DNA of 58,770 nt from Macrostomum lignano. Lineage: Eukaryota. The notes beneath the pieces are model-generated. The model searched no databases. It saw only the letters and a list, made by a program, of their open reading frames with translations, and had not been told where the DNA came from. A program made the position numbers and the translations under genes. Below, in pieces: positions 1 through 39,700 of this stretch (its first letter is position 1; the number at the start of each line of letters is the position of its first letter). The stretch is taken from positions 1 through 58,770 of the forward strand of contig NIVC01004128.1 in assembly GCA_002269645.1 (NCBI GenBank), given 5' to 3'.

Positions 1-710
1 GCGTCGGTTGCATTAGCTCGCTCATTTTACTTGGCTAGAGTTATCGAGTCTGCGTTCTGTTCCAAATAATAAATTTGTTAATTTAAAATTATTCATATTA
101 ATATTTCCACTACGAGTGGCAACTTGATTATCGACATAGTTCTTTATCAACCACTGAATCACTAGTTGAATTGAAACATTTATAATTCGGTTGTTGCTCA
201 TATCTAGGTTTCGGTTGCGGTGGTTGAACATAACGTGAATCAGAATCAGTTCGAGAATAAGAATCAGTTACATCTCTTTTAAATTTAATCCATTATCAAC
301 TTCGGTTTTGGTATAGAATCGGTACGTTCCGTTTCAAATTTATGAATTATCAACTTCGGTTTTGGTATAAGAATCGGCCGTATTGCGTTTAAATTTAATG
401 AATATCAACTTCGGTTTTGGTATAAGAATCGGCTGTATTGCGTTTTAAATTTAATGAATTATCAACTTCGGTTTTGTATAGGAATCGGCCTACGTTCCGT
501 TTCAGATTTAGTAATCATCTATTTGAGTTTTAGTATAGGAATCTGCAACATTTCTTTTTAAATTTAATTTAGTATCAATTCACTTTTTTTATAACCTTCA
601 TCTTCATTAATATATCGATTATCTCCAAATGTAACACTTATTCCACCAGATGTGCCACCACCACCACTACTTGTTGTTCCGTTCCATGAGGGTGTTCCAG
701 AAAATAACAT
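1..710 (-). CDS. Fibre-like virion protein, frameshifted and running off the window
   Basis: Manual translation from ATG 710: MLFSGTPSWNGTTSSGGGGTSGG..., then about 6 copies of a ~20-aa repeat (LNLKRNxADSYTKTEVDN), then (G)NLDMSNNRIINV...KNYVD, motifs typical of viral/phage fibre proteins. Several single-base deletions must be bridged. Confidence 0.6.
295..590. repeat. ~60-bp tandem repeat coding the fibre YTKTEVD repeats
   Basis: Repeated TCAACTTCGGTTTTGGTATAAGAATCGG core at about 60-bp spacing. Confidence 0.8.
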
Positions 711-764
711 TTTTTACTGTCTATTTTATAGAGTCTAAAATCGCCCGTATCTCCGTATCGAACC

Positions 765-1198
765 TTAGGTTCGCATGCTTTGCATGATACCCCTAAAGTC
801 TTCGGGTCTTTCCTTCGAGTTATTAATTTTATATAAAAAATAACGCAGCTGCCCGCAATAACTTTTATCAAAGTTTGAAATGTTCGTGATGATCTCCACA
901 TAAACGATTTTTAGTATGATTAAATTTATCTTTTATTTCCTGTAACGGAGGAAGCGCGTATGAATCAAAAAAATAAACAAGTTTTGGTTTTGAATAAACT
1001 GCTGACCAATGAACACCATTTTCTTTTGTTGTTTCAATATTAACAATGAAACATCCATATTGTGTAAGTCTTTTATCTCATCCGCATAACACATCTGAAT
1101 GGTTTTATTTTTAACTGCCTCGCCCAATTTGTTAATTCGATATTGCTTGTTGTGTCCGTTCCATATCTTTGTTTAAAATCATCCCACGTCATGGTCAT
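765..1198 (-). CDS. Adenain-type cysteine protease (Polinton PRO), frameshifted; missed by ORF track
   Basis: Bridging about four -1 shifts from ATG 1198 gives MTMTWDDFKQRYGTDTTSNIELTNWARQLKIKPFRCVMRDEIK...GCFIVNIETTKENGVHWSAVY...YFFDSYALPP...FQxFDKSYCGQ...MRT*, with catalytic His (GVHW), Asp (FDSY) and Gln/Cys (Q...CG). Confidence 0.85.
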
Positions 1199-1199
1199 T

Positions 1200-1406
1200 T
1201 TATGTTCCTGAAAAACTCTTGGTTTTAGTTAGTTTCGTAGGTGTGGGTTTTAACAATTCCTTTCTTATTTTATCAGCTTGTAACTGCCTTAATTTTGCTA
1301 GTTCTAGTTCGTAATTATCTTCAGCTTTTTTAACTTTTTCTGATTGTTTTTTTATTAAATTATTATTATCGTGCTTTGCACGCGAACATGTTGTTCGATT
1401 ACCCAT
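1200..1406 (-). CDS. Small basic/coiled-coil Polinton protein, 68 aa, N-terminal MG
   Basis: ORF fills the gap between penton and protease and has the same TAAAAATG start context as its neighbours. Confidence 0.55.
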   Translation of the reverse strand: MGNRTTCSRAKHDNNNLIKKQSEKVKKAEDNYELELAKLRQLQADKIRKELLKPTPTKLTKTKSFSGT

Positions 1407-1416
1407 TTTTACAGTA

Positions 1417-2201
1417 CTAAACCTGTTTTATACGTAAAATTATTGTTATTGATGCCCACCAAAACTTATTAATCTATCGCTTTCATCTACAATCCTAATA
1501 TAAATTGATTGAACATTATATTGATTTAATGGGTAATATATTGGGGTTTGAGGTGATACAATCATTTTCTCTCCAATTGGAACAGCAAGAAATGGGATTG
1601 AATAAATAATTCCACGTTGAACCAAAACTCCGTTATCGTCTGTTATATAACCACCGTTTGAAATGTCGGTTGTTATATTAATTGTATTTACTCCACCCTC
1701 TATATTTCCAACTGTATCACCGGTGCTTGATGTGGTAACTATTCGGGAATTAAATCCAAGTATGGTTCTGAGTGAATTTGCAATTGTGAAATCAACCTGA
1801 TATCCGGATCCTAGTGATAGTGTGAATCTGCCAGACGGTAAATCAACACCTATAACAATTGCTCCTGTTACCCAATCACCATTAGTTGTTAATTCTCCTT
1901 CTATATAAGCATTCAAATCAGTATAGCTATACGCTCCTGGGTTAATGCTAAATGTTGTCCAATTGGCTCCGGAATCTTTAGAATATCTAAATTGATTATT
2001 TGTTGCATTAATTAATTGAGGCATGTTGAAAACCGAAAATAGTATTAAACCTATTTGATAACTTAGGCTTTGATCAAGTTGTAATGGATCGCGCAATTGA
2101 ATCCGTTGCTCGCTGGTTGTCATTATAAACTGTAATGTTGTACTAAATTTTGAATTAGTTCGATCTACCAATTGTTTTATAGTATTTAAATTTGTAGCCA
2201 T
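1417..2201 (-). CDS. Minor capsid protein (penton, single jelly-roll)
   Basis: Beta-rich 251-aa ORF with NSLRTILGF and P..IYYPL...I.IRIVDE..RLI motifs seen in Polinton pentons. One -1 shift near 1450 restores the C-terminus GGHPITIILRIKQV* (stop 1417-1419). Confidence 0.8.
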
Positions 2202-2215
2202 TTTTATAGTGGGAA

Positions 2216-2977
2216 TTATTCTTCTTCCTCGTCGTCTTCTTTTATAAGATCTTTTAAGATTCGATTTTTCCTTTCTAACCTCGGATTGATATAAATATGT
2301 TTGTATTGGCTATCATCCCAAATTTTTTTACACATACTTTTAAATGGTTTTGCATCCAATCCGGGATTAAATCTCGCGTGAATATTTTGTAAATCATAAT
2401 TATCTAAATCAAACATTACACAACAACTTGCATTCTTTTTTATAATCGATTCTAATTCTCTAAAGGACTGTGTTAGATAAAAAGCTCCAATTCCATCTCC
2501 TCTACCACTAACAAAAATTTCCTTTTGCAATTCTTGATCACCGTCATTAATACAATCATCAAAAATAATTAGTGTTTTATCATGTTTTGGAATTTGATCA
2601 TAGGCTAATCGGGTTGATACTCTAACAGTTGGGGCGCGATCGGTGATGTTTTCTGGCTGTTGTGCCATTGTTTTACATAAATCCTCAATGTCTGCTAGAT
2701 TAAATCGCGGTTCGTCATCATCCTCATATTGCTCATATGCTCTTAACATTCTAAACAAGACATCTTTTTTTAATTTGTTTTTTAATCCATGTTTAAGAAA
2801 TTCATAATATTTTATTCTAGGTTTATTAGTATAAATTATTAAATTATTATAGTCTAACATTCCATCTGTTGTTAATAAATCGTAAACAAAGTGTGTTTTT
2901 CCTTTACCTGATCCTCCGATTACTAAACAAAGAAAAGGATCATTTGGAAATATCTTATCGTGTTTTGCTTTTACCAT
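2216..2977 (-). CDS. A32/FtsK-HerA-like genome packaging ATPase
   Basis: Walker A GGSGKGKT, Walker B LIIFDD, then GRG...FYLTQSF. Confidence 0.92.
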   Translation of the reverse strand: MVKAKHDKIFPNDPFLCLVIGGSGKGKTHFVYDLLTTDGMLDYNNLIIYTNKPRIKYYEFLKHGLKNKLKKDVLFRMLRAYEQYEDDDEPRFNLADIEDLCKTMAQQPENITDRAPTVRVSTRLAYDQIPKHDKTLIIFDDCINDGDQELQKEIFVSGRGDGIGAFYLTQSFRELESIIKKNASCCVMFDLDNYDLQNIHARFNPGLDAKPFKSMCKKIWDDSQYKHIYINPRLERKNRILKDLIKEDDEEEE

Positions 2978-3026
2978 TTTTAAAGAAATAATTTAAATAG
3001 GCGCGACGGTCGGAGACCTGCGCCGC

Positions 3027-4497
3027 TTACAGCGGGGCGTCCCGAACAATCGTGCCATCAGCTTTAGCAATTGACATATATTCCTCTAGAAACAATACGT
3101 GGGCGTCAAGTGCCTGATTACCGGTTTTATTAATCTCTAACATATAATTAAGTCCAATATTGGCTACGTTTTCTTTCTGTGCCGTTAGATCATAAACAAC
3201 CACTGGATGAATGTTTAGAAACTCTGTGGGTGTGTACTGAGGGACGGCATACGCTTCATTTTTAGCATAATCTTGATAATATTTTATAAAATCATTAACA
3301 TTATTATTTGCTATATTTAAATTTAGGGGTCTTTAACCGGATAATATTGATCATCAACCTGCAGGCGGATATTCTGAACATTAAACTCGTTAATAGCTGC
3401 AGCCGCATTGTCTGTTGCGGTGGCTGCTTGTTCTGCTATGGCACCGGATTGAAGCCAATATAAATCCCCATTTGCTCTTTTACTCCTTCTATTTGTTATC
3501 TTAAACCAAACAAAAATATATCTCACCCGACGTTTTGATGTCAGTATTTGCCACTGGAATGAATCCTGGTTATTATTAATGGTTCGCATAAAATGTCGAC
3601 GATTCAAATAAAATATTTCCTGATCATGCGTTAACTGATTATCGATGTGTTTTAAAAGTGGGGCTGTTACCTCAATAGTTGGTACGACTAATTGAATTGA
3701 ATCTATACGAACTGCTATATCGGTTGAAATTGAGGTTCCATAAAGTATCCTAGGCTGATATCCACCAGATATTTGCAACTGTATCCCAAATTTTAATCCT
3801 TTCCATACCCGATTTGGTGAGAAAAACCCAAATAGTGGAAAGATTGAAAAGTCCTGCTCATATGCTGTTGCTGTGGTTAAAACCGCGACTGGGAATTTAT
3901 TCTGACGATCTATAAAACCAGTATTAATATCTTTTGTATTAGTCATAGTGGTTACAACTGGAACTATGTTTGTATTAAGGTAAACAATTAGCGCTGCAGT
4001 ATCTGCACCGGCTGCGTTTTGTACATTAGGGAAAACTACTGCTTGCCGTTACCTTTATCCGGCATCCACCCAACATTATCACCAACTTGTTTTGATAAAT
4101 AAGTATAATTTAAATGTTTCAAAACTCCATTAATCTCTGCGGGGTTTGATGATGTCTCAACCTCAGCACCATTAACAGTTAGTTGAGCTTGGGAAAAACA
4201 TTTATAAAACCAATCATTTTCTATTATTATTCCGGATCGATCTGCGATATCTCCGGCTGCAAGAGCAGTTCCATCATTTCTAGTATACAACCATCTAACG
4301 CGGAAAAACGCATTTTTCATATCCAATATAGTGTTGGTTGCGCCGATGTCAAAAGTTACCGTTCCAGTAGTAAAGTTATTTGAATTATCACTTGTTGGTA
4401 GGGTATAATTTAAATCTCTTGCTCTGACCTCATTAATATACTGTCGGTGCTTTTTGAAATGAAATTTATCACTCCACATAGTTTTTGTTTCAGCCAT
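3027..4497 (-). CDS. Major capsid protein (double jelly-roll), about 490 aa, split by two -1 frameshifts (~4040, ~3325)
   Basis: ORFs 4036-4497 and 3323-3946 join, and a third segment (...HPVVVYDLTAQKENV...RDAPL*, stop 3027-3029) completes it. NTGFIDRQ and FPLFGFF..RVWKGLKFGIQL motifs, size and position next to the ATPase fit a Polinton MCP. Confidence 0.8.
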
Positions 4498-4531
4498 TTT
4501 TTTAAGTTAAAAAAGTTTTTTATGTTAAAAA

Positions 4532-5197
4532 ATGAGTCAATTTATGGACGTTGATGGAGAGTTAGCGATTTATAAAGAGAAGCAAAGATATTCTGATTTT
4601 GTTAGAAATTTACAAAAAAGAAAGTTAGGAATACAATTAGCGGGTGAAAGATTTGCTGCTCCTTTTGTTAATCCTATTACTGGGAAAATTAGTGAACTAG
4701 AAAAAACAGATAAAGATCTTCTGGAAAAAATTGCTAAAAATACGGAGCCAAAAGAGGATGAAATTTTGGATGAGCCGCCTGCTTATGATGTTGATCAAGC
4801 ACAATTGAGAATTGCAGAGATTAGACGTGCAGAGCGGGGCGATCGGGAACAATATCCAAGAGTACCAGCTAGTATTGCTGCGACAGATTTAGGTAATAAT
4901 AATTATCGAATTGGTGGAGTTGATAAAAATCGAAATGAACTATATAGAGAATTGGGTGGAGCATATAATATTGTTATGAACCCTAGGGTAAAGTTTAACC
5001 CTGATTTATATACTAGGGATGAATTAATAAGTGCTAGAATTTTTTATGATGAGTTAGGAGGAGCTGTTAAAAATACCAGCTTGTATAAAAGGATTGTTAA
5101 TTCTATAAATAACAAACCAGCTGTTGGTGATGGATTTAAAACACCACGAAAACTTGTTTTAGCTGCTGCGAAAGCTGCTGGACATACTGGTGTTTAA
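4532..5197 (+). CDS. Polinton hypothetical protein, 221 aa
   Basis: Intact ORF with TAAAAAATG start, divergent from the MCP gene; N-terminal charged helical region ending in PFVNPIT. Confidence 0.7.
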   Translation: MSQFMDVDGELAIYKEKQRYSDFVRNLQKRKLGIQLAGERFAAPFVNPITGKISELEKTDKDLLEKIAKNTEPKEDEILDEPPAYDVDQAQLRIAEIRRAERGDREQYPRVPASIAATDLGNNNYRIGGVDKNRNELYRELGGAYNIVMNPRVKFNPDLYTRDELISARIFYDELGGAVKNTSLYKRIVNSINNKPAVGDGFKTPRKLVLAAAKAAGHTGV

Positions 5198-5224
5198 TTA
5201 ATTGTTAAATTTATTTTTTATAAA

Positions 5225-5825
5225 ATGAAAACTAATAAGATTTGTACTAAGTGTAAACAAGAAAAACCGATGACGAAAGAATTTTATTTTTGGAGAAATG
5301 ATTCAAAAAAATTTAGAAATGATTGTCGATCTTGTCATAATACCTCATCTGCTATTTGGATAAAAAACAATAAAGATAAATGGAATGAATATAGAAAAAA
5401 TAAGTATCACACTGATGATAATTACAAACATATTGTTTTAATTAGAAATAGAATAAATTGGGCGTTGAAAAATTTTAATGACAAGGACTATATCTCATAT
5501 CTTGGTTGCACAAAAGAATTCTTTTTTGATTGGTTAAATTTCACAAGAAATTATTATGTATCAAAAGATTATACTGGAAAGTTAGATATTGATCATTTCA
5601 TCCCCGCTTCTTCATTTAGTTACAAAGACGATGATCAGATTAAAAAGTCTGAAAATTGGAGAAATAAAAGATACTTAACTAGCGTAGATAATCGCTATAA
5701 AAAAGTTAAACAACCAACTATCGAAGAGTTTGCAAAACAATTGGTGCTATCATGTATTTTTATGGCTATTAAAAATGAGCAACCGAACGAAGTTCGCGAA
5801 CCGCAGTTCGATCAATTAGTATTTG
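5225..5825 (+). CDS. Zinc-finger/HNH-type endonuclease of the kind found in large DNA viruses; end coordinate approximate
   Basis: CTKC...CRSC zinc knuckle, YLGC, and DIDHFIP...NWRN...DNRYK beta-beta-alpha-metal motif. As assembled the frame continues into PLA2 exon 1 to the TAA at 5933-5935; see findings. Confidence 0.8.
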
Positions 5826-7384
5826 AAGGAGGATTTTTAGATGTTCAAAAAGGATTAACAAGCTTACCACCAATATTTACTACTGGGAGGTATACGGGTG
5901 AGCTACACCTACCATCAATGAACTTCACAGGTTAACCCGTGGCCTGAGTGAGGAAGGCAATGTCCTTGCTAGTCACTATTTGTGGCGACATCTCCAAATT
6001 GCGTGAAACCCGTCATACAGCTTCAAGTACCACTTCAATTGAGAAATCTTTTGAAGGAACAGAGGTAACTCCTCTTCCCAAAGGTAAAAAGCTTGAAGAC
6101 ATGGTGGCAATGCGCAGCCAAGCTCCTAAGTATTTTAAATATAAGGAGAAGGTTCAGAGAGCAGACGGAGATGGGCGGTAATTATCGCCGCTTAAGGTGT
6201 GCTCCAGCCTCATTCGAAAGATTGAGGGTAAACAGCCGGGGACTAGACTGGATTTAAGATTAAATCCTGACAATACTCCAAAATCTGATTCAATTCCAAT
6301 AAATGGGATTGATTGGTTAGCATACTATCACGACTTAGCATATAGAGATGCTGACAAGAACCCGCCCGAGGAAGCATTAAGATTAAAACATGAAGCCGAT
6401 CAAAAAATGATTCAAGGATTAGATAACTTGCAGGGATTATCGGTAGGTCAAAAATTAACTAGGTGGATGGTTAAAAAGATTCTACAATCTAAAGTTAAAT
6501 TTGGTTTGGGAATTAATTATAATCAACATGGAAATAATTGTGTTGAGTGTTTACTATTAAGTGGCAGTGGGTTAAGTTATTATGATGCTAAGTTTCTTCA
6601 TAAAGAATATCGAAAACCTAAATTTTATAGAAAAATCATGAACTTCAAAAAGAACGAAATTTGGTATGCTGATTTAATGTCTATGCCGAAAGATCTGGGA
6701 TATAAATATATCTTAACCATATTAGATGGTTTTACTCGATACGCGTGGGCTGTTCCTTTAAAATCCAAAAAGGGAGAGGAGGTTGCTGCTGCTTTTAGAA
6801 GTCTTGGAGAAAAAAGCGAACGTTTGTGTGTTGACGAAGGAAAAGAATTTTACAATCCACACATGTATAAATTGTATCATTTTGAAAAAGGACAAGAAAG
6901 GAAAAAGGACGCGAATGGGGGGTATATTAATAAAATTTATTCTATTTATGGAGAGAGTAAAAACGCATTAATAGAAAGATTTAATCGAACTTTAGGTAAG
7001 AAATTATGGTTTCAGTTTAGTCTTAATGGTAACCAAAAGTGGGTAAAAATATTACCAGACGTAGTGAAAGATTATAACAATTCATATCATTCAGCTATAA
7101 AGATGGCTCCTCAACAAGCTTATAACAATCCTGAAAAAGTTAAAGTTACTTTTGGAAAATTTGAAAAAAAGAAAACTAAAGATTTTAAAGTTGGTGATTC
7201 TGTTTATATCTATAAATGGAAAGATAAGTTTGAAAAGGGAAGAAAAGGATATTGGAAAATAAGTGAGAAATTTACCATCAGTAAAGTTTTAAATACCAAT
7301 CCTACAACCTATATAATTGCTGATAAGGACGGTGAAGAAATATTGGGTTCTTTTTATGAGAACCAGATAATGTCTGCGAACTAA
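5775..7384 (+). CDS. PLA2-integrase fusion gene, exons ~5775-5932 and 6236-7384, interrupted by a group I intron
   Basis: Joining 5932 to 6236 gives GELHLPSMNFTG|PGTRLDLRL...PINGIDWLAYYHDLAY (parvovirus VP1u-type PLA2: GPG loop, HD dyad). This runs through KVKFGLG into a DDE integrase (WYADL, VDEGKEF, LIERFNRT) with C-terminal KVGD...GSFY. The start is either ATG 5775 (needs +1 base) or the HNH ATG 5225. Confidence 0.88.
5933..6235 (+). ncRNA. Group I self-splicing intron, IC1-like, 303 nt, no internal ORF
   Basis: P1 CAGGU(5928-32)/GCCUG(5942-46) with U.G at the 5' splice site; P2; P2.1 (GCUAGUCAC...GUGGCGAC); P3 CAUCUCC(5989-95)/GGAGAUG(6167-73); P4 UGCGUG(6000-05)/UGCGCA(6111-16); P5abc with GAAA loop (6043-46); P6 GCC/GGU, P6a CUCCU/AGGAG; P7 G-A-GAGCA(6157-63)/UGCUCC(6200-05); P8 GGCGG/CCGCU; J8/7 UAAGGUG; P9 with GAAA loop (6216-19); terminal G 6235. 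Removal restores the frame and the conserved GPGT motif. Confidence 0.93.
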
Positions 7385-7394
7385 GTTCAAACAG

Positions 7395-7619
7395 TTACTT
7401 AAGACAACATGGTAGTAAATTTTTTATTACAAACAAAAACAATATTATTACTATTATTGTTACTAATATTATTATTGACATTTGTTCAACTGTTATCAAA
7501 CTTAAATTTTCATTAAGTTCATTAATTGGAACATTTCCGATGTAGGAATAGTTTACCTTCATTTTTTTATATATATTTTTCACAATAAAAGTCGTTTCTG
7601 TTATAGAATAATAATTCAT
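7395..7619 (-). CDS. Small single-pass membrane protein, 74 aa
   Basis: TAAAAAATG start; hydrophobic stretch SIIILVTIIVIILFLFVI followed by KNLLPCCLK. Confidence 0.55.
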   Translation of the reverse strand: MNYYSITETTFIVKNIYKKMKVNYSYIGNVPINELNENLSLITVEQMSIIILVTIIVIILFLFVIKNLLPCCLK

Positions 7620-7635
7620 TTTTTAAATATTTTTT

Positions 7636-7950
7636 TCACATAAAAATTTCACTTTCATTCTCTGAATCGCTGGTTTCATATGAACTATTTGTTGATTCGG
7701 AATCTGTTGATCTAACCTCCCAATCATCCGAATTTAAATAATCTCCAAGTTGAAATATTAACTCACCCTCTTGTTCTAAATCATACATCTCATCTAGCTC
7801 TAATGGATAAAGTTTTAGGTCGTGCTTGTCGTCATATTTTAAATAAACTTCATCAATTATTCCATTCAAAATATGTTGTTTTATTATCTCTGCATTTTTA
7901 GCAACAGTCTCAAAAGTATCACTAACAGAAAAGGTGTAAACTCGGGTCAT
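7636..7950 (-). CDS. Acidic hypothetical Polinton protein, 104 aa
   Basis: TAAAAATG start; D/E/S-rich C-terminus. Confidence 0.6.
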   Translation of the reverse strand: MTRVYTFSVSDTFETVAKNAEIIKQHILNGIIDEVYLKYDDKHDLKLYPLELDEMYDLEQEGELIFQLGDYLNSDDWEVRSTDSESTNSSYETSDSENESEIFM

Positions 7951-8004
7951 TTTTAGTAACAGAAAAAGACCCTTCGCGCCTGCGGCGCGGGCAAGGGGTT
8001 ATAG

Positions 8005-8275
8005 AGTAGTAGTATAGAAAAAGACGCTTCTAGATCAGACCTTATTTTAATGGCCGTTTGTAAGGTCTTAAGAGGGGGGACGCGAGGGGGGTGTTGGGGA
8101 GTGTTTGGAAGTGTTGGGAAGTGATTTTTATTGTTAGGGGTGATTATGGGTGATTAGATGTATTAATGGTGTTTAGATGTGTTTTTTTATTTACCCCCCG
8201 TGTCCCCCCTCTAGACCCTTAAAACGGTCATTAAAAAAGTGCTCTGGGTCTAGAAGCGTCTTTTTATATACTACT
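8005..8275. repeat. Polinton terminal region with an internal inverted copy of the terminus
   Basis: 8008-8092 (AGTAGTATAGAAAAAGACGCTTCTAGA...) is an imperfect reverse complement of 8192-8275 (...TCTAGAAGCGTCTTTTTATATACTACT). Confidence 0.85.
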
Positions 8276-9700
8276 GAAGCCATCGTTAATTTTGACGGCT
8301 TGCCTTTGTACCGAGCAAGCCACTTCGGTCTTTGGCCCATACTTATGTCTATTCCCAGCATATTCAGCAGACCTTTTCCAGTAGCCGTATGGGCTGGTTG
8401 TGGCAAGCCACCTCTGAATGATTATCTTCGACAATTTTGCGACGAGGCTAAACGTTTTCTTACGGGTCCAATAAAAATTATCGAAAATTTAAGCATCAGC
8501 TTCTCGACTATCCGATTTGTTTGCGATGCGCCTGCTCGAGCCTGGGTCTCAGTAACTCAAGGGCACATGTCGTACGTCGGTTGCATGTACTGCAGGGCTA
8601 CTGGACCTTATACCGACAACAGAGTAACATTTTCAACGAGCGTCGGGGAGTCTCGTAGCAGCCAACAATACCGAGAGGGAAAGGAGTCTAACCAGGAAAA
8701 TAAAAAAATCGCTCTATCGCCCCTTCTAAATTTGCCTAACATTAGTTTTGTCGATGCTTTTCCCCCTGACTACCAGCATGCCGTATGCCTTGGAGTCACA
8801 AGGAAGCTATTTTACCTATTTTTCGACAAATCTAATGGCAAGAAGTGTCTCGTCTATCCCGGTCCGATGAGCCTATTGGGCGACCGAATTACTATGGCTG
8901 CCGGTTGGACACCTTCAAACTTTCAACGAAGACCCCGGAAAATCGACTTGGAACTGAAGCACATGAAGGCTACTGAATTCAGACAGTACTTGCTGTACCT
9001 AGGACCTGTCCTCTTCAAAGGCATTTTAAATGAAGAAAGGTATAACCACTTTCTTTACCTCCATTTCGCCATTTACGCATACTCCAACGAAAGGTACTCC
9101 AAGTGGTGGACGCAGGCAAAAACTTGCATTGAAGTTTTTGTTGAACGGGCTGCCCACCTTTACGGCCAGAAGTTTATAAGTTTCAATCTTCACACTATTC
9201 TTCATTTGGATGAGTTTGTCCGAAAGCTAGGCAGTTTAAACAACTTTTCGACTTTCCCTTTCGAAAACTTTCTTGGATCTGTAAAGCGCCGCGTAAAGGT
9301 GACAAGGCACATGGCAGCGCATTCAGTTAAGCAGGTGCTCAGAGTTCGCGATCTTCTGTTGAATGAGCAGCGAATTCCACCGTTGAAATTCAGCACAAAG
9401 CGAGGTGATAATTGTTGCATAATCGACAAAGTATGCGTCCTAATCGAAGCTGTAAGTGAAGCTAATCAAGTCACTGGCAGGATTTTACACCCAGTTGACA
9501 ACATCTACGCCAACCCATATCCATCTTTGCGTCTGGGAATCGGCTTGTACAGGATGACATCTGGTGTTCTAACTGGCACACCTGAGCGAAAGTGCTGGAT
9601 TTTGCCTGCGAATCTGCTTGCCAATCTTGCTGGAGCGGACAGGGATCCAGCAAGCCATTTTTTTGTCATTCCTCTGACAGGTGACTCCGAGGAGGCCTGA
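8276..9700 (+). pseudogene. EnSpm/CACTA-superfamily transposase, 5' part cut off by the Polinton insertion
   Basis: NFDGLPLY...WPIL, FVCDAPAR, GH..Y.GCMYC, PDYQHAVCLGV, KATEFRQYLLYLGP, FNLHTILHL, FPFENFLG. The ORF-track N-terminus (8177-8275) is Polinton terminal DNA. Confidence 0.85.
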
Positions 9701-10793: not shown

Positions 10794-12704
10794 ATGGCTT
10801 TGCCAAGTCGTGCATCAAATAGACAGGTAGCCAGGGAAATGCAAGAAATACTACAAGAGCTTCCGACGATTGGGGCTACAAATATTGAGGCTAGGCTAGA
10901 TCTAGAAAATGTGATGGGACAAAATGAAGATACAAAGAGCAATGCTGAGCCTGAAGAGACATTCTTTGATGCAGTGGGTCCAATGCCAATGGACTTTGAT
11001 AGCCAAATGCATGCTCTTTTTGAGGAAGAAATGGATGAAGAAGTTGAAGAACAAGATGACTCTCTTGGCTATAATAGACCTCCGCCACTTACTTTGGTGC
11101 AAGAGTTACTATTGTTTTACATAACATTCAATATTACTAGTGCTGCCATGAATTACCTACTTCGGCTTTTGGCTCGTTTCTTCACTGACATACCCACTTC
11201 TGTCTACATGCTTAAGAGGCAGTGTCCAAGCACAGAGATCACGAGGTTCAATGTCAATAATGGTCATGTTGCCTTTCTCTCCATTGTGGACAATTTGAAA
11301 TTTTTACTTGATTCCAAAATCCTTACAATTCCATCTGGAATTACAAACTTCTTTGTTTCCTTAAGGGTAAATGTTGATGGTCTTCCTTTATTCAAGTCAT
11401 CTAGAATCAATCTTTGGCCTATATTGATGCTAGTAAATAATTGTTTTAGACCTGTGCCATTTGGCCTTTTTTGTGGCATTGGAAAGCCTGACCTACATGT
11501 CTTCTTAGAAAGGTTTTGTTCTGAAATTGCAGGTCTACAGAATGGTTTTGACTATAATATGAAAAGAATTTTTATTAAGTCAATTGTCTTTATCTGTGAC
11601 ACACCTGCTAGAAACTTTATTCAATGTTTGAAAGGTCATTCCAGTTATCTTGGCTGTAGTTGGTGTCGTCAAGTAGGAAATTACACAGGTGACAGAATTT
11701 GTTTTTCTAATACCATTGCAGAGGCTCGAACAAATCAAGATTATGAACAAGGGCGTGAAAATAACCAACTTGGTATTTCTCCACTAGCCAGGATTGTTCC
11801 AATGTATTCCAATTTTGTACCCGACCCAATGCATATTGTCTACTTAGGGGTTGTAAAGAAGTTGCTCAAATTTTACTTCCTTGGAGCAAAGCACATTCGA
11901 CTTGCTTGCAAGTTGTCATCCCAATTAAAAGAGGAAATAAATAGAAAAATAATGTATATTAAGGAATTTGTTCCTTCAGATTTTCAAAGACGGCTTCGCA
12001 CTTTTGCTGACATTGAATACTTTAAAGCAACGGAATTCCGCCAATGTCTTTTGTACTTTGGTCCGTTCCTTTTTAAGAATACCTTGCCAAAGGTCTACTT
12101 TAATCATTATCTATTATTGCATTGGTCAATTTCAGTCCTTAATTCACCTGAGTACTGTGAAATTTATTTTGATGCTGCTGAGGCTTGTTTGAAAAAGTTT
12201 GTTGCTGAGGCACCAAGCCTATATTACAACAGTGTAGTTTCTTATAATTGGCATGCTCTGTTGCACCTTCCTGAGTTTGTGCAAATGTATGGCCCACTTG
12301 ACACGTTTTCAGCTTTCCCTTTTGAAAACTACTTGCAATTGATCAAGAAGAGAATTCGTTGTACCAATCATGTTTTTGCCCAATCTGTCAACCAGTTGTT
12401 GAATGTGAGATTTTTATATTCTAATGACAAGTTGGGTGACATTGGTTTTACTAATAAGAGTCCTAATAACTGTGCTATTGTTGATGGAAAGGTTGTCATT
12501 GTCACCAATTTAAATGATGGTCTTATTTCAGGCCAGGTTCTCACATTTGATAGAAGCCTTTATTCCTATCCATATCCATCAAAATCAATTGGCATAGGCT
12601 ACTATAAGCATTCAAAGACATTTGTATCCAACTTGCAACCTTCTAAGAAGGCCATTCTAATTCCCTTTGGCGGAGACTATCTGGTCATTCCTTGCATCAA
12701 GTAA
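10794..12704 (+). CDS. EnSpm/CACTA-superfamily transposase, 636 aa, apparently intact
   Basis: NVDGLPLFKSS..LWPIL, ICDTPAR, GH..YLGCSWC, PDPMHIVYLGV, KATEFRQCLLYFGP, YNWHALLHL, FPFENYL. Confidence 0.9.
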   Translation: MALPSRASNRQVAREMQEILQELPTIGATNIEARLDLENVMGQNEDTKSNAEPEETFFDAVGPMPMDFDSQMHALFEEEMDEEVEEQDDSLGYNRPPPLTLVQELLLFYITFNITSAAMNYLLRLLARFFTDIPTSVYMLKRQCPSTEITRFNVNNGHVAFLSIVDNLKFLLDSKILTIPSGITNFFVSLRVNVDGLPLFKSSRINLWPILMLVNNCFRPVPFGLFCGIGKPDLHVFLERFCSEIAGLQNGFDYNMKRIFIKSIVFICDTPARNFIQCLKGHSSYLGCSWCRQVGNYTGDRICFSNTIAEARTNQDYEQGRENNQLGISPLARIVPMYSNFVPDPMHIVYLGVVKKLLKFYFLGAKHIRLACKLSSQLKEEINRKIMYIKEFVPSDFQRRLRTFADIEYFKATEFRQCLLYFGPFLFKNTLPKVYFNHYLLLHWSISVLNSPEYCEIYFDAAEACLKKFVAEAPSLYYNSVVSYNWHALLHLPEFVQMYGPLDTFSAFPFENYLQLIKKRIRCTNHVFAQSVNQLLNVRFLYSNDKLGDIGFTNKSPNNCAIVDGKVVIVTNLNDGLISGQVLTFDRSLYSYPYPSKSIGIGYYKHSKTFVSNLQPSKKAILIPFGGDYLVIPCIK

Positions 12705-30735: not shown

Positions 30736-33700
30736 TCACAGCTGCACAGGCCTATTCTTAACCTTGTCGATGCAATAGGCGGTGAAACGGCGTAGAAATT
30801 TCGGATATTCCCGTTTCGCCACCTGCCTGAGGACGGTGGCGGGAGCCCAGCCGCCTGGATTAATGTTAGCCGCGTACTGAATTCGGCAGCGAATATGCCG
30901 ACGGTCCGCCGGCAGCTCGGGCGGCAGCTCGGTCTCGCAGATCATGCTGACATTCAATCGCATACGCTGGCGACTATTAATGAGTGGCGGAGCCTTATAA
31001 TCGGTGCTATAATTCACTACCATTGTGCGCCGTTCGTCGTGTCGAATGTGCGACCAAAAGACCGCATCGCGTTGAGCTGTCGGCCAGACCCGGCGATAGA
31101 TTTGATGCAGCAGGACAGTGTCCGCAGCTAACGTATCGACTACGACTGGAGCGGAGTCGAGAGTGTGCTCCCAGTCAAGGCGGTAGTGCAAATCCCAGAA
31201 GTATTCGGCCACTTCTCTGGCTGACACGCCCGAGACAGTGTACGTAGCCAATATTGGATCGATAATCATGCCTGTGGAAATGAAAGGGATAAAAGGAATA
31301 AATATTTTTTTAGATACAAAAGTACAGATGCACATTAAAGACGCGTACTTTGGCGGAAGCTGCTAAAACATTGTGTACATAATTAAAGTACATGTACTGG
31401 TACTTTTAGAGTACATGCGCACTTTCGAAGTACACGCGTACTTTATGAAGTGCACACGCACTTTCTAAAGTAAATATTATATTTTGCCCGTGTTCTCTAA
31501 AAGTACACGTGACCTTTTTAGTGGCGTGAATTCACTTTTAATGCAAGAAATGGAAAATCCAGACTGCTGTCTCGGTTTAAATAAGCGAATTTTTAGCGCT
31601 CCATTTAAACAAACGTAGTCAAAGTATAGAATCTGAAATGTGTTAGAACGCATTAACCGCAAGCGAAAAAAAACTACTGGTACTCACACAGTGAGCAATT
31701 ACTCTTTAGAATAGAAGCTTCATTATGAAAACAATTAATGCGCTGATTAATTTACATCACTGTAAAAATTTGCCAGTTAAAAAATTCAATAGTCAACTTA
31801 ATAAAATTGTTGACTAACATACCACTGGCTGTAAATTTAATTAGGGAAAGGTTTTTTGTAGTTTGGTAGCTTGTAGTTTATACGCAGTTTGTAGCTTAAA
31901 GTTTGTAGGTAGTTTGTAGCTTATAGTTTATAGGTATTGGGTTGTTAGGAAAGTTCTGTCCGTTTTTTTATTTTTCTATGCAGAGGATCATGAAGCTGTG
32001 TTGGATCCAATACTTGTGTATGCATACACAGCCAGAGTTGTGGTCATTCTAACCAAGTCATTTGCTTTTCAGCGCCCAACTATGGCCAGAAATTTTGAAT
32101 TAAACAGCATCGCTTTAAGGCAGTGCATGCTATATGATTTTCTAGCAGGTATTACAGCAGCCGAATCGACTCGACGCCTGTGCAGTGCATTTGGCCAGGA
32201 TGCTGTCTCTGACCGCACAGCCCGTTGTTGGTTTGATCGCTTTCGCAGCGGCGACTACAGCCTTGCTGACGAACCTCGCCCTGGACGCCCATCTGAGATA
32301 GACACTGAGCTGCTGCGGACACTTGTGGAGGCCAATCCGCACCAGACTACACGAGAGCTGGCAGCCACTCTCGGGTGCTCCCATGTGCAAGTCGCTGAAC
32401 ACCTGGCTGCCATGGGCAAGAAAAGCAAGCTCGGACAGTGGACCCCCCATGACCTGACTGACAGGGACCGTCAAAGCCGAGCAGACATTTGCACCTCACT
32501 GCTCTCCTACAAGAGAACAACAGACTGGCTGGCCTCAATACTCACTGGTGATGAGAAGTGGGTGATGTACGTTAATATACACCGCAAGCGCCAGTGGGTC
32601 GATGCCGGCAAGCCGCCACAGCCAGAGCCAAAGGCTCCACTGCACCCTAAGAAGGTGATGCTCTGCTGTTGGTGGGACAGTGAAGGAGTTGTATACTTTG
32701 AGCTGCTGCCGCCCAACACCAGCATCACCGCCGAGCTCTACTGTAACCAGCTGCAGAATGTGGCCGACTGCCTCCGCACACAGCGTCCAGGGCGTCAGCA
32801 TGTTCGCTTCCTTCATGACAACGCTCGGCCGCACACCGCCAATTTGACCCGACAAAAGCTGCTGGATCTGGGCTGGGAAGTGCTGCCTCACCCACCTTAC
32901 AGCCCTGATCTGGCCCCTACAGACTACCATCTTTTTCGAGCGCTGCACCATCATCTGAAAGAGAAAACGTTTGAAGATGACAAAGGGGTCAAGGACTGCA
33001 TTACTAACTTTTTTGAATCACAGCCCAAGGATTTCTACAGAGCTGGCATCCAAAGTCTGCCCTCTCGTTGGCAGAGGGTCATCGATTGCGATGGCAATTA
33101 TTTTACTGAGTAACACTGCTGCGTTCCTATAAAAACTCGCTCCAACCTATTTTAGTCAAAACGGACAGAACTTTCCTAACAGCCCAATAGTTTGTAGCTT
33201 ATAGTTTATATGCAGTTTGTAGCTTAAAGTTTGTAGGTAGTTTGTAGCTTATAGTTTATAGGTAGTTTGTAGCTTATAGTTTATAGGTAGTTTGTAGCTT
33301 ATAGTTTATATGCAGTTTGTAGCTTAAAGTTTGTAGGTAGTTTGTAGCTTATAGTTTATAGGTAGTTTGTAGCTTATAGTTTATAGGTAGTTTGTAGCTT
33401 ATAGTTTATAGGTAGTTTGTAGCTTATAGTTTATAGGCAGTTTGTAGCTTATAGTTTATAGGTAGTTTGTAGCTTATAGTTTATAGGTAGTTTGTAGCTT
33501 ATAGTTTATAGGCAGTTTGTAGCTTATAGTTTATAGGTAGTTTGTAGCTTATAGTTTATATGCAGTTTGTAGCTTAAAGTTTGTAGGTAGTTTGTAGCTT
33601 ATAGTTTATAGGTAGTTTGTAGCTTATAGTTTATAGGTAGTTTGTAGCTTATAGTTTATAGGCAGTTTGTAGCTTATAGTTTATAGGTAGTTTGTAGCTT

Positions 33701-36700
33701 ATAGTTTATAGGTAGTTTGTAGCTTATAGTTTATAGGTAGTTTGTAGCTTATAGTTTATATGCAGTTTGTAGCTTATAGTTTATAGGTAGTTTGTAGCTT
33801 ATAGTTTATAGGCAGTTTGTAGCTTATAGTTTATAGGTAGTTTGTAGCTTATAGTTTATAGGTAGTTTGTAGCTTATAGTTTATAGGTAGTTTGTAGCTT
33901 ATAGTTTATAGGTAGTTTGTAGCTTATAGTTTATAGGCAGTTTGTAGCTTATAGTTTATAGGTAGTTTGTAGCTTATAGTTTATAGGTAGTTTGTAGCTT
34001 ATAGTTTATATGCAGTTTGTAGCTTAAAGTTTGTAGGTAGTTTGTAGCTTATAGTTTATAGGTAGTTTGTAGCTTATAGTTTATAGGCAGTTTGTAGCTT
34101 AAAGTTTGTAGGTAGTTTGTAGCTTATAGTTTATAGGTAGTTTGTAGCTTATAGTTTATAGGCAGTTTGTAGCTTATAGTTTATAGGCAGTTTGTAGCTT
34201 ATAGTTTATAGGTAGTTTGTAGCTTATAGTTTATATGCAGTTTGTAGCTTAAAGTTTGTAGGTAGTTTGTAGCTTATAGTTTATAGGTAGTTTGTAGCTT
34301 ATAGTTTATAGGTAGTTTGTAGCTTATAGTTTATAGGTAGTTTGTAGCTTATAGTTTATAGGCAGTTTGTAGCTTATAGTTTATAGGTAGTTTGTAGCTT
34401 ATAGTTTATAGGCAGTTTGTAGCTTATAGTTTTATAGGCAGTTTGTAGCTTATAGTTTATAGGCAGTTTGTAGCTTATAGTTTATAGGTAGTTTGTAGCT
34501 TATAGTTTATAGGTAGTTTGTAGCTTATAGTTTATAGGTAGTTTGTAGCTTATAGTTTATATGCAGTTTGTAGCTTAAAGTTTGTAGGTAGTTTGTAGCT
34601 TATAGTTTATAGGCAGTTTGTAGCTTATAGTTTATAGGTAGTTTGTAGCTTATAGTTTATATGCAGTTTGTAGCTTAAAGTTTGTAGGTAGTTTGTAGCT
34701 TATAGTTTATAGGTAGTTTGTAGCTTATAGTTTATAGGTAGTTTGTAGCTTATAGTTTATAGGTAGTTTGTAGCTTATAGTTTATAGGCAGTTTGTAGCT
34801 TATAGTTTATAGGTAGTTTGTAGCTTATAGTTTATAGGTAGTTTGTAGCTTATAGTTTATAGGTAGTTTGTAGCTTATAGTTTATATGCAGTTTGTAGCT
34901 TAAAGTTTGTAGGTAGTTTGTAGCTTATAGTTTATAGGTAGTTTGTAGCTTATAGTTTATAGGTAGTTTGTAGCTTATAGTTTATAGGTAGTTTGTAGCT
35001 TATAGTTTATAGGCAGTTTGTAGCTTATAGTTTATAGGTAGTTTGTAGCTTATAGTTTATAGGTAGTTTGTAGCTTATAGTTTATAGGCAGTTTGTAGCT
35101 TATAGTTTATAGGTAGTTTGTAGCTTATAGTTTATATGCAGTTTGTAGCTTAAAGTTTGTAGGTAGTTTGTAGCTTATAGTTTATAGGTAGTTTGTAGCT
35201 TATAGTTTATAGGTAGTTTGTAGCTTATAGTTTATAGGCAGTTTGTAGCTTATAGTTTATAGGTAGTTTGTAGCTTATAGTTTATAGGTAGTTTGTAGCT
35301 TATAGTTTATAGGCAGTTTGTAGCTTATAGTTTATAGGTAGTTTGTAGCTTATAGTTTATAGGTAGTTTGTAGCTTATAGTTTATAGGTAGTTTGTAGCT
35401 TATAGTTTATAGGTAGTTTGTAGCTTATAGTTTATAGGCAGTTTGTAGCTTATAGTTTATAGGTAGTTTGTAGCTTATAGTTTATAGGTAGTTTGTAGCT
35501 TATAGTTTATATGCAGTTTGTAGCTTAAAGTTTGTAGGTAGTTTGTAGCTTATAGTTTATAGGTAGTTTGTAGCTTATAGTTTATAGGCAGTTTGTAGCT
35601 TAAAGTTTGTAGGTAGTTTGTAGCTTATAGTTTATAGGTAGTTTGTAGCTTATAGTTTATAGGTAGTTTGTAGCTTATAGTTTATAGGTAGTTTGTAGCT
35701 TATAGTTTATAGGTAGTTTGTAGCTTATAGTTTATAGGTAGTTTGTAGCTTATAGTTTATATGCAGTTTGTAGCTTATAGTTTATAGGTAGTTTGTAGCT
35801 TATAGTTTATAGGTAGTTTGTAGCTTATAGTTTATAGGTAGTTTGTAGCTTATAGTTTATAGGCAGTTTGTAGCTTATAGTTTATAGGTAGTTTGTAGCT
35901 TATAGTTTATATGCAGTTTGTAGCTTAAAGTTTGTAGGTAGTTTGTAGCTTATAGTTTATAGGTAGTTTGTAGCTTATAGTTTATAGGTAGTTTGTAGCT
36001 TATAGTTTATAGGTAGTTTGTAGCTTATAGTTTATATGCAGTTTGTAGCTTAAAGTTTGTAGGTAGTTTGTAGCTTATAGTTTATAGGTAGTTTGTAGCT
36101 TATAGTTTATAGGTAGTTTGTAGCTTATAGTTTATAGGTAGTTTGTAGCTTATAGTTTATAGGCAGTTTGTAGCTTATAGTTTATAGGTAGTTTGTAGCT
36201 TATAGTTTATAGGTAGTTTGTAGCTTATAGTTTATAGGCAGTTTGTAGCTTATAGTTTATAGGTAGTTTGTAGCTTATAGTTTATAGGTAGTTTGTAGCT
36301 TATAGTTTATAGGCAGTTTGTAGCTTATAGTTTATAGGTAGTTTGTAGCTTATAGTTTATAGGCAGTTTGTAGCTTATAGTTTATAGGTAGTTTGTAGCT
36401 TATAGTTTATATGCAGTTTGTAGCTTAAAGTTTGTAGGTAGTTTGTAGCTTATAGTTTATAGGTAGTTTGTAGCTTATAGTTTATAGGTAGTTTGTAGCT
36501 TATAGTTTATAGGCAGTTTGTAGCTTATAGTTTATAGGTAGTTTGTAGCTTATAGTTTATAGGTAGTTTGTAGCTTATAGTTTATAGGCAGTTTGTAGCT
36601 TATAGTTTATAGGTAGTTTGTAGCTTATAGTTTATAGGTAGTTTGTAGCTTATAGTTTATATGCAGTTTGTAGCTTAAAGTTTGTAGGTAGTTTGTAGCT

Positions 36701-39700
36701 TATAGTTTATAGGTAGTTTGTAGCTTATAGTTTATAGGCAGTTTGTAGCTTAAAGTTTGTAGGTAGTTTGTAGCTTATAGTTTATAGGTAGTTTGTAGCT
36801 TATAGTTTATAGGTAGTTTGTAGCTTATAGTTTATAGGTAGTTTGTAGCTTATAGTTTATAGGTAGTTTGTAGCTTATAGTTTATATGCAGTTTGTAGCT
36901 TATAGTTTATAGGTAGTTTGTAGCTTATAGTTTATAGGTAGTTTGTAGCTTATAGTTTATAGGTAGTTTGTAGCTTATAGTTTATAGGCAGTTTGTAGCT
37001 TATAGTTTATAGGTAGTTTGTAGCTTATAGTTTATAGGTAGTTTGTAGCTTATAGTTTATAGGCAGTTTGTAGCTTATAGTTTATAGGTAGTTTGTAGCT
37101 TATAGTTTATAGGTAGTTTGTAGCTTATAGTTTATAGGTAGTTTGTAGCTTATAGTTTATAGGTAGTTTGTAGCTTATAGTTTATAGGTAGTTTGTAGCT
37201 TATAGTTTATAGGTAGTTTGTAGCTTATAGTTTATAGGTAGTTTGTAGCTTATAGTTTATAGGTAGTTTGTAGCTTATAGTTTATAGGTAGTTTGTAGCT
37301 TATAGTTTATAGGCAGTTTGTAGCTTATAGTTTATAGGTAGTTTGTAGCTTATAGTTTATAGGTAGTTTGTAGCTTATAGTTTATAGGTAGTTTGTAGCT
37401 TAAAGTTTGTAGGTAGTTTGTAGCTTATAGTTTATATGCAGTTTGTAGCTTATAGTTTATAGGTAGTTTGTAGCTTATAGTTTATAGGTAGTTTGTAGCT
37501 TATAGTTTATAGGCAGTTTGTAGCTTATAGTTTATAGGCAGTTTGTAGCTTATAGTTTATAGGTAGTTTGTAGCTTATAGTTTATAGGTAGTTTGTAGCT
37601 TATAGTTTATAGGTAGTTTGTAGCTTATAGTTTATAGGTAGTTTGTAGCTTATAGTTTATAGGCAGTTTGTAGCTTATAGTTTATAGGTAGTTTGTAGCT
37701 TATAGTTTATAGGCAGTTTGTAGCTTATAGTTTTATAGGCAGTTTGTAGCTTATAGTTTATAGGCAGTTTGTAGCTTATAGTTTATAGGTAGTTTGTAGC
37801 TTATAGTTTATAGGTAGTTTGTAGCTTATAGTTTGTAGGTAGTTTGTAGCTTATAGTTTATAGGTAGTTTGTAGCTTATAGTTTATAGGTAGTTTGTAGC
37901 TTATAGTTTATAGGTAGTTTGTAGCTTATAGTTTATAGGCAGTTTGTAGCTTATAGTTTATAGGTAGTTTGTAGCTTATAGTTTATAGGTAGTTTGTAGC
38001 TTATAGTTTATAGGTAGTTTGTAGCTTATAGTTTATAGGTAGTTTGTAGCTTATAGTTTATAGGCAGTTTGTAGCTTATAGTTTTATAGGCAGTTTGTAG
38101 CTTATAGTTTATAGGCAGTTTGTAGCTTATAGTTTATAGGTAGTTTGTAGCTTATAGTTTATAGGTAGTTTGTAGCTTATAGTTTATATGCAGTTTGTAG
38201 CTTAAAGTTTGTAGGTAGTTTGTAGCTTATAGTTTATAGGTAGTTTGTAGCTTATAGTTTATAGGTAGTTTGTAGCTTATAGTTTATATGCAGTTTGTAG
38301 CTTAAAGTTTGTAGGCAGTTTGTAGTTTCTAGTTAGTAGGTAGGTTGCAGTTGTAATTTGCGAGAATCGTACAATTTTATAATATGCGCACCATTAAGCT
38401 ACTGTTAGTAGAGAAATCAGTAAATAACAGTCAGAATGGTCTAGATAAGTAAATTAATAGACCCCCTCAGTAATTAAATTTCACTCACCCTCTTCTTCCA
38501 GTTGCTTTCTATACACAGCCAATTCTCCATCTTTTTCTAATAGTTCCATCCCGGCGCACGAGGCGCCCCAATTGTCCCAGTGCGATTGGCAGACGCGCAT
38601 AATTTCATCAGTGAGCGGATGGTTTGGATCTAAGCTGTGATTGGGCAGTCGGGCCTGTCTTAATCGGCTCATATTGCTGGCGTCCATGTCCATCTTGTCT
38701 AATTGGGCGTCGATTGCGTCGAAAAACTCTTCTTCATCAAGTTGACAGCAGGGGCCCTCTTCAAAATCTGGGCCCATGGGATCGCCAACACGTTTCTCTG
38801 CTAGTTCGAGCTTCTGTCTAAGCTGTCGAACTACATCTTCCACTTTGCGGCGGCGTTCCATTTCGCGATCAAGGCGTTTCTTCCATTGCTCTTCGCGTTG
38901 GGTCATCAGCTCCAGGCAGCTGGACATTTGATGAATTATGCCGGCTGTGGTTGCCTGAAATTGCAGCGCGTGACGGGGGTAGAGGAGAGGCTGAAGAGTA
39001 GGGAGGGAGAAGAGTGGGGTCACATGGGGTAGGGAGGGAGGGAAGTAGAAGGGCTGGGATACAGGGGGGGGGGTAGAGAGGGAGGGAGAAGGGCTGGGAC
39101 ACTGGGACACAAAGGGTAGGGAGGGAGGTAAAAGGGCTGGGACACAGGTGATAGGGAAGGAGGGAGAAGGGCTGGGACACAGGATATAGGGGGGGAGGTA
39201 AAAGGGCTGGGACTCAGGGGGTAGGGGAGGGAGGGAGAAGGGCTGGGACACAAAGGGTAGGGAGGGAGGTAAAAGGGCTGGGACACTGTGGGTATGGAGG
39301 GAGGGAGAAGGGCAGGGACACAGGAGGTAGGGAAGGAGCTTGGGCTCCAAAAACATTTTGAATTTCTCAGCATTCTCACTCGAAAAGTGTTAGCTTCGCC
39401 TTTGAAATCCACAGCGTGCCCGCCGTGCTGTCGCAACAGCCTCATGTAGCTGTCGTAATCCACCAAGGATTTAGCTGGAGGTGGCGCCGTGGCGGCGGCG
39501 GCAGTGGCAGCGGGTGAGGCACTGGGAGCGGCACTTCGACGACTGAAAAACGAGAATAGCGAAGTACCACCGCCGCTGCCAGCTGACTGCGATGCTGTCA
39601 TAGTGGCAGCGGTGATCGTAGTGGCAGCAGGATCTTCGTATTCGTCCTCCTCATCGTCGCCATCGTCAGCATTGTTGCTAACTTCGTCCTCGGCAGTCTT

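Follow-up and report, generated by a model that had tools for sequence, protein, structure and literature searches.

A group I intron, probably self-splicing and spread by homing, in the PLA2-integrase gene of Polintons integrated in an animal nuclear genome

The stretch of DNA analysed here (the window; 58,770 nt, contig NIVC01004128.1 of Macrostomum lignano) opens inside a Polinton. Up to the right terminus of the element it holds genes for a packaging ATPase, a probable capsid protein, a probable protease and a nuclease, and a gene in which a PLA2 domain is fused to an rve integrase and interrupted by a group I intron (Table 1). The capsid and protease genes are broken in this copy and neither gives a Pfam match in the window. 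The pPolB gene is missing from the window; PF03175 (protein-primed PolB) scores over its cut-off 9–11 kb upstream of nine sister copies. The terminus sequence has 218 matches in the genome, and four whole copies measure 17.7–23 kb from end to end, three of them with a 6-bp target duplication. The Polinton context proposed in an earlier note on this DNA is thus borne out by the ATPase, by pPolB in the sisters and by the target duplications.

Table 1. Features of the window, in window coordinates.
Feature	Position	Strand	Basis
Probable maturation protease gene, fragmented	638..1172	-	one piece weakly like adenain, E 1.2
A32-type packaging ATPase	2216..2977	-	PF04665, 29.9 bits (cut-off 22.8)
Probable major capsid gene (double jelly roll), split over three frames	3027..4506	-	Atlas look-alikes of the middle piece, PF21738/Capsid_N (lead only)
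Free-standing HNH/endonuclease VII-like nuclease gene, candidate homing endonuclease	5225..5794	+	PHROG 1035, E 1.3e-7
Exon 1 of the PLA2-integrase gene	5762..5932	+	sister copies; synonymous excess in last 34 codons
Small double-hairpin insertion at start of exon 1, variable among copies	5783..5810	+	
P1 and internal guide; exon end pairs with 5940-5946	5928..5946	+	reading of sequence
Group I intron of type A, 303 nt, ORF-less	5933..6235	+	RF00028, hand model, covariation
P3 (5989-5995 with 6167-6173) around P4, P5, P5abc, P6 and P6a	5989..6173	+	hand model, covariation
P5abc; L5b GAAA loop at 6043-6046	6021..6098	+	hand model, sequence reading
P7, with A6158 bulged and G6159-C6204 as guanosine-site pair	6157..6205	+	hand model
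P8	6174..6192	+	hand model
P9.0 (1 of 2 pairs in the window copy), P9 with GAAA loop 6216-6219, terminal G6235	6206..6235	+	
Exon 2, encoding PLA2 (His-Asp motif at residues 32-33) and, fused to it, an rve integrase	6236..7384	+	
Right terminus, bounded by 27-nt inverted repeat; host transposase-like frame beyond	8008..8275	.	

About 268 bp at each end of the element form a segment with a 27-nt inverted repeat of its own at the borders (seen in the window and on contigs C110, C326 and C1530). A one-base variant of this repeat lies on one side in some copies and on the other side in others, as would fit a flipping of the terminal segment. Two transposase-like frames (8177–9700 and 10794–12704) give no family match over the cut-off; since the Polinton ends inside the start of the first frame, its insertion into another transposon is suggested. 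The host flank also contains a mariner transposase (32082–33113), a 25-bp satellite in 206 copies (33188–38347) and a piece of reverse transcriptase (56991–57788).

The host is an animal, since four intron-bearing contigs carry Wnt genes. The 764-Mb assembly gives 86 Wnt matches, and Wnt exons share contigs C67, C393, C506 and C952 with a copy of the intron (about 23 kb apart on C952). The window contig has a single-exon CERT-type START frame (30736–31335, E 4e-51), CERT being typical of animals. A search with the mir-124 marker gave no match, its controls were silent as well, and it is uninformative on a bilaterian host. The nearest relatives of the intron are found in giant viruses and the published introns of Polinton-like viruses in protists, as would suit elements from a co-assembled protist symbiont, a food organism or a free virus. 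We regard such an origin as very improbable in view of the linked Wnt exons, the START frame, the target duplications at three of four whole elements and the single organism label on all 20 runs that contain the sequence. The element is one of a Polinton family integrated in many copies in the nuclear genome of an animal, the kind of host that the earlier note had named.

The intron falls between a Gly codon, which ends exon 1 (5932), and the codons for Pro-Gly-Thr, which begin exon 2 (6236). The start ATG of the sister copies corresponds to 5775; in the window copy this ATG is out of frame because one base is short within 5790–5815, and the in-frame ATG lies at 5762. Window exon 2 matches PF08398 and PF00665, both under the cut-off (integrase E 1.2e-6). 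Its first in-frame Met is residue 58 (6407), which lies beyond the His-Asp motif and ahead of the integrase core, so that an ATG-started catalytic PLA2 requires removal of the intron. The long frame 5225–5935 in front of the intron is mostly the separate nuclease gene and not PLA2.

Of 20 family-A loci, 17 have an insert of exactly 303 nt. A degenerate pattern search (control 0) found 24 intron-less copies in the genome with contiguous flanking codons, and an exact search of the genome with the window's own flanks found no empty site. Loci L054–L056 are natural insert-less copies in which the codons are contiguous. Two empty copies pass PF08398 (33.3 and 34.7 bits, cut-off 23.9), and in P0194, an orthologue from outside the genome with 75% identity, the whole PLA2-integrase fusion is uninterrupted. 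The empty alleles, which the earlier note had suggested seeking in related Polintons, and P0194 are colinear at the joint NFTG|PGT that it had predicted from excision of 303 nt. All 106 PLA2 loci from outside the genome are likewise contiguous at the insertion site and have neither an intron match under E 1.8 nor a nuclease neighbour; 80 of them came from a pattern that demanded an uninterrupted motif, which kept 80 of 555 relatives.

On both sides of the intron, in codons where 77–79% of the sites are non-synonymous, intron-bearing sequences differ from each other more by synonymous than by amino-acid variants. Over the final 34 codons of exon 1, 10 distinct sequences show 24 synonymous and 12 amino-acid variants; over 40 codons of exon 2, nine distinct sequences show 22 and 2. 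L010 was dropped from the exon 1 count and L017 and L058 from the exon 2 count; L018, the empty L056 and family B were excluded from both. The synonymous excess could have built up in intron-less ancestors and been brought in by recombination; exchange with empty alleles could account for part of it. Gly-Gly and Gly-x-Gly motifs occur at window 5820–5830, at about 6560–6575 and at 5140–5155. Those that precede the PLA2 and integrase parts resemble the consensus of adenain cleavage sites, so the fusion may be a polyprotein.

RF00028 is the sole Rfam match in the whole window (cmscan; 5923–6226, forward strand, 65.6 bits, E 2e-14) and exceeds the gathering score of 50 bits; the covariance-model check suggested earlier thus gave a significant match. 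A hand model of P2 to P9 in window coordinates contains 92 standard pairs out of 93, the sole exception being in P9.0. From reading of the sequence, U5932 stands opposite G5942 in P1, giving a U.G pair at the 5' splice site, and 5936–5941 can pair with 6236–6240, with one bulge, as the proposed P10. The guide register of type A recurs in types B and C, described below. The features that had been picked out by eye are therefore all found: the group I core, the U.G pair, the terminal G, the GAAA loops L5b and L9 and a P10 between guide and exon CCGGG. A motif in P6/P6a (6125–6130 with 6142–6146) resembles the 11-nt receptor. By its hand-read layout (P2, P2.1, P5abc with an A-rich bulge, the GAAA loop and the receptor-like motif) the intron is IC1-like; P9.1 and P9.2 are missing from the window copy.

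In an alignment of 18 distinct cores, drawn from two Polinton families, 96.4% of the 1310 cells are paired in a structure that had been derived from one of those rows. Both sides have changed in 11 of 73 pairs, three of them in P7 and two in P3. None of 500 shuffles reached this, and slid partners pair in 40–51%. The double changes sit in the catalytic core; between types A and B, three of the six P7 pairs change on both sides. They amount to few independent events, because most reflect one split between type A and type B. In the aligned cores, hairpin insertions of 15–47 nt are found at peripheral positions only, and the folding energy of the window intron is by itself mildly unusual (z −2.3, 100 shuffles). 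The fold, the exact insertion point and the empty alleles confirm 5933–6235 as a group I intron. The window copy does have GT at 5931 and AG at 6234–6235, as a spliceosomal intron would, and this route was considered and rejected since the cut from GT 5931 to AG 6235 takes out 305 nt and breaks the frame. AG ends only 8 of 100 listed 3' ends, and the Rfam score and the covariation in P7 speak against this route and against a structure formed by chance; removal by the spliceosome and chance structure are scarcely credible.

One codon boundary houses three types of intron; the two Polinton families concerned share about 60% identity in their integrases. Type A, that of the window family, is ORF-less and measures 301–333 nt. 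Type B (836–895 nt) belongs to the second family and has an ORF in the L2.1 loop that runs on into the core; all 28 RF00028 matches scored in the genome are over the cut-off and are type B where read. Type C is about 325 nt long and is found at loci L049–L053 and, with an extra insertion, at L057. It has P2, P2.1 and P5abc in common with type A and a different core, which gives no Rfam match at E 1. Its independent structural support is the free fold (z −3.5), a helix check on self-chosen strands being circular and having misplaced P5, P6, P6a, P6b and P9.0. In the free fold the downstream exon is paired with the 5' leader, which is longer in type C. Two surplus bases after the Pro-Gly codons create a frame problem at the likeliest 3' site of type C, and either an adjacent G serves as 3' site, which adds a codon, or excision requires a further step. 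Peripheral parts have visibly been exchanged between the types.

The genome contains over a hundred copies of the intron, a count that includes probable haplotype duplicates. A search with the exon end gave 167 matches, chance matches among them (control 3), and two of the loci, L179 and L180, are not PLA2. At L178 and L181 (contigs C1391 and C870) exon 1 is followed by a truncated 5' part of an intron (P1–P2.1) and then by unrelated sequence, apparently remnants of a further variant.

The 3' ends differ between the families. In family A, 61 of 79 listed copies end in A and 18 in G, and all 21 listed type B copies end in G (counted by hand among the first 100 of 115 copies, with a pattern that permitted A or G only). 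A terminal G is near-universal in group I introns; Coxiella Cbu.L1917 is a natural precedent for an intron that ends in A. P9.0 is complete in most sister copies, which however end in A.

This bears on splicing. We think it likely, from the features of the sequence, that the intron removes itself from the element mRNA by two guanosine-dependent transesterifications, which would be the sole ATG-started route to the PLA2 catalytic motif. Contigs of four runs (X1, X4, X10 and X15, only guessed to be RNA) were placed on 5150–7450, with cover in all 30 bins. Among the pieces listed there is no joint across the intron, and contigs of X4 and X10 run straight through the 3' border in its A-ending form. 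The predicted junction, which the earlier note had proposed looking for in reads, thus did not turn up in these four runs; the null is weak, because the runs are not recorded as RNA and contigs lose rare forms. With the A-ending majority it keeps alive the reading that the intron is a relic, active in a free viral ancestor, and that most copies, above all those ending in A, no longer splice. Copies would then multiply with an integrase started at the internal Met 6407, which precedes the integrase core, or provided in trans, and PLA2 would come from empty alleles. Decayed or interrupted copies (L057, L177, L178 and L181) and the broken capsid and protease genes of the window fit such a history. 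The A-ending copies (including L002–L010), however, have P7 unchanged, P3 kept and a full P9.0, and the third positions of their Pro and Gly codons vary while the residues are kept. Their exon 1 differs by 15 synonymous against 5 amino-acid variants (three sequences; exon 2, with 1 against 0, is uninformative), and family A, which would need empty alleles as a source of PLA2, contributes only 1 of the 24. We consider the relic reading unlikely for these reasons, though it deserves to be kept in mind.

The gene just upstream of PLA2 may offer a means of spread. In the window it is an HNH-like nuclease gene about 140 nt upstream of the insertion site, whose residues His124, Asn147 and Asn156 are invariant in 60 homologues. 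Its model reaches pLDDT 94 (only 40 when made from the single sequence) and resembles HNH domains and Hpy99I (Z 6.3, 42 residues, rmsd 1.7) only weakly in fold; searches with the window ORF found no nuclease family in Pfam and nothing under E 0.001 in Foldseek. Across the copies the slot just before the PLA2 start holds a variable nuclease gene, three different ones irrespective of intron type. In other copies the nuclease is 52–55% identical to that of the window. The type C loci L049 and L051 have a free-standing Eco47II-like gene in the slot that is 62% identical to the ORF inside the type B intron, and this ORF itself matches PF09553 (Eco47II nuclease family; 30.1 bits, cut-off 25.9). L056 has an empty site and yet retains an HNH gene 89% identical to that of the window. 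The in-frame fusion of HNH nuclease and PLA2 exon 1 in the window was considered as a family trait and discarded, being present in only 2 of 14 loci and a peculiarity of such copies.

From this arrangement it is probable that homing carries the intron from one co-resident Polinton copy to another. The empty site would be cut by a site-specific nuclease and repair would then copy the intron in. In type B this nuclease, Eco47II-like, would be encoded by the intron itself, in L2.1; otherwise, as in collaborative homing, it would stand free in the exchangeable upstream slot, where the window has the HNH gene and L049 and L051 have the Eco47II-like one. The window copy looks like an ORF-less passenger, apparently decayed. 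Taken with the fold, our best explanation, which we hold to be probable on the whole, is a self-splicing IC1-like intron of an animal Polinton PLA2-integrase gene that spreads between copies by homing.

The empty alleles have a particular last exon codon. In all 24 (four sequence lineages) it is GGC, with C rather than U before the insertion point, and in every intron-bearing locus read it is GGT. GGC accounts for 6 of the 109 Gly codons in the window's element and for 10 of 106 last exon codons in the homologues from outside. On the homing reading the surviving empty alleles are those in which the last exon base is C; no U.G pair can form in them, and they may resist cutting. The requirement for U before the insertion point would by itself explain the intron side of the GGT/GGC split, and this can also be read with splicing real, the nucleases aimed at other sites (intronless homing or restriction-like competition) and the introns moved by recombination or reverse splicing. 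The three different nucleases found in the slot whatever the intron type, the HNH gene that adjoins an empty site in L056 and the swapping of intron periphery between types all agree with nucleases of this kind. This reading leaves unexplained the absence of an empty GGT allele among 24 and the occurrence of the same nuclease family both beside and inside the intron, and we judge it to be rather improbable.

A further-reaching version of the homing reading is possible, and we put it forward tentatively. The copies may form a living germ-line population of ribozymes, in which Polintons recombine and compete through homing nucleases, the commonest form splices with its terminal A and all stages are present together, beginning with an ORF-less intron that has a free-standing nuclease as its neighbour and ending with an intron that has taken in a nuclease of the same family. 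The type C ribozyme, with A-type periphery and another core, may in that case need a second, trans-excision-like step, a reaction that is described as non-native, in engineered ribozymes (PMC2532722).

The intron family exists beyond this genome, because 10 of the 16 homologues of the type B ORF found in ENA, JGI and Logan assemblies end in a tail translated from this intron core, in some cases from a core like that of type A. Among proteins with such read-through tails is P0016, a cluster of 30 near-identical Eco47II-like proteins on ENA contigs of up to 65 kb, which looks like a multi-copy family in another large genome. Relatives were scored with a sequence profile of the cores. In IMG/VR, intron motifs retrieved 132 loci, of which 121 match this profile, the best of them in RPB1 genes of giant viruses, with a nuclease ORF in the same loop as in type B. 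In a tree with 77 viral cores the 18 Polinton cores form one branch (100/100); the tree is unrooted, leaves type C out and points to no donor. Scans of IMG/VR for the type B ORF, the P5abc motif and the type C core found nothing, and none of the 10 matches there to the 5' junction pattern has PLA2 or integrase.

Integrated Polinton-like viruses of Rhodomonas lacustris, Paulinella micropora and Desmodesmus armatus are already reported with RF00028 matches (PMC12220804; at least 32 of the 51 rows of its Table S11 are from Rhodomonas). They resemble the present case in having a group I intron of about 310–375 nt in a protein gene, integrated in many nuclear copies. They differ in that the hosts are protists and the interrupted gene is a short one upstream of the capsid gene, not PLA2-integrase; the accessible parts of the paper report no empty alleles, intron nuclease or splicing test (PMC12220804). 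The earlier note knew of no description of the context; this does not hold for Polinton-like viruses as such and stands, within the literature searched, for the animal host, for the interrupted gene and for the means of mobility, in which the novelty therefore lies. In open-access articles with few of their supplements, the search turned up no case of a group I intron from animals in either Polintons or nuclear genes. In particular, the available text of papers on animal Polintons and their nucleases reports no such intron (PMC10748475; PMC8502044; PMC11131425; PMC11296320; bioRxiv 10.64898/2026.10.13.758929). Also not found there were three intron types at one site and a nuclease both beside and inside the intron.

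Giant viruses contain the closest sequence relatives that we found. Group I introns interrupt polr2a/b of Bodo saltans virus (PMC5871332) and genes of chloroviruses (PMC7019647), and here too they sit in protein genes in nuclease-bearing and ORF-less forms. As described in the portions available, these viruses are lytic, infect protists and use HNH and GIY-YIG nucleases, whereas the nuclease within the Polinton introns is Eco47II-like; their splicing has been confirmed by RT-PCR (PMC5871332; PMC7019647).

An ORF-less intron beside a free-standing nuclease is also the layout of collaborative homing in phages, where F-CphI acts with the psbA intron of S-PM2 (PMC3984707; PMC6083498). F-CphI has an endonuclease VII motif and the window ORF matches an endonuclease VII profile, and the move of the nuclease into the intron that is predicted in the accessible text for collaborative homing appears to be realised in type B (PMC3984707). 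Homing in phages was shown by cleavage assays (PMC3984707; PMC6083498); in the integrated eukaryotic Polintons it would follow from gene layout only.

Tetrahymena Tth.L1925, an IC1 intron of rDNA, has the core, the P5abc layout and the nuclear location in common with the present intron and differs in lying in an rRNA gene; the Polinton intron is in a protein gene and is without P9.1/P9.2 (PMC3679873, in part). As for the interrupted gene, PLA2X of Adintoviruses and Polintons is a parvovirus-like PLA2 that accompanies rve integrase, ATPase, protease and pPolB; the accessible description mentions no interruption (PMC8502044). In the present element PLA2 forms one gene with the integrase, and the intron divides it.

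In the parts of these sources available, nuclear group I introns are stated to occur exclusively in rRNA genes of microorganisms (review, PMC3679873), and those of animals to be scarce and mitochondrial (PMC3984707). A group I intron that occurs in many copies on animal chromosomes, and there in a protein gene, contradicts both statements. It raises the questions whether a ribozyme can splice from nuclear mRNA in an animal and why such introns are otherwise missing in animals. Homing requires that two alleles meet, so that passage of the intron between two families whose integrases differ by about 40% speaks for recombination of Polintons as co-occurring replicons. The copies provide natural variants for ribozyme chemistry (ending in G or A, with or without a nuclease, and with a second core), and the Eco47II-like proteins are a candidate new family of homing nucleases.

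A GC-rich hairpin or double-hairpin unit has been inserted repeatedly. It is seen in the window at 759, 1383 and 5783–5810, and at L021, L038, L042, L174 and L177. Its motif has four matches in window positions 1–8200 and none in the remaining 50 kb. Within introns the unit occupies peripheral loops; P6b of L177 contains a long tandem array of it. The unit may be a tiny mobile element.
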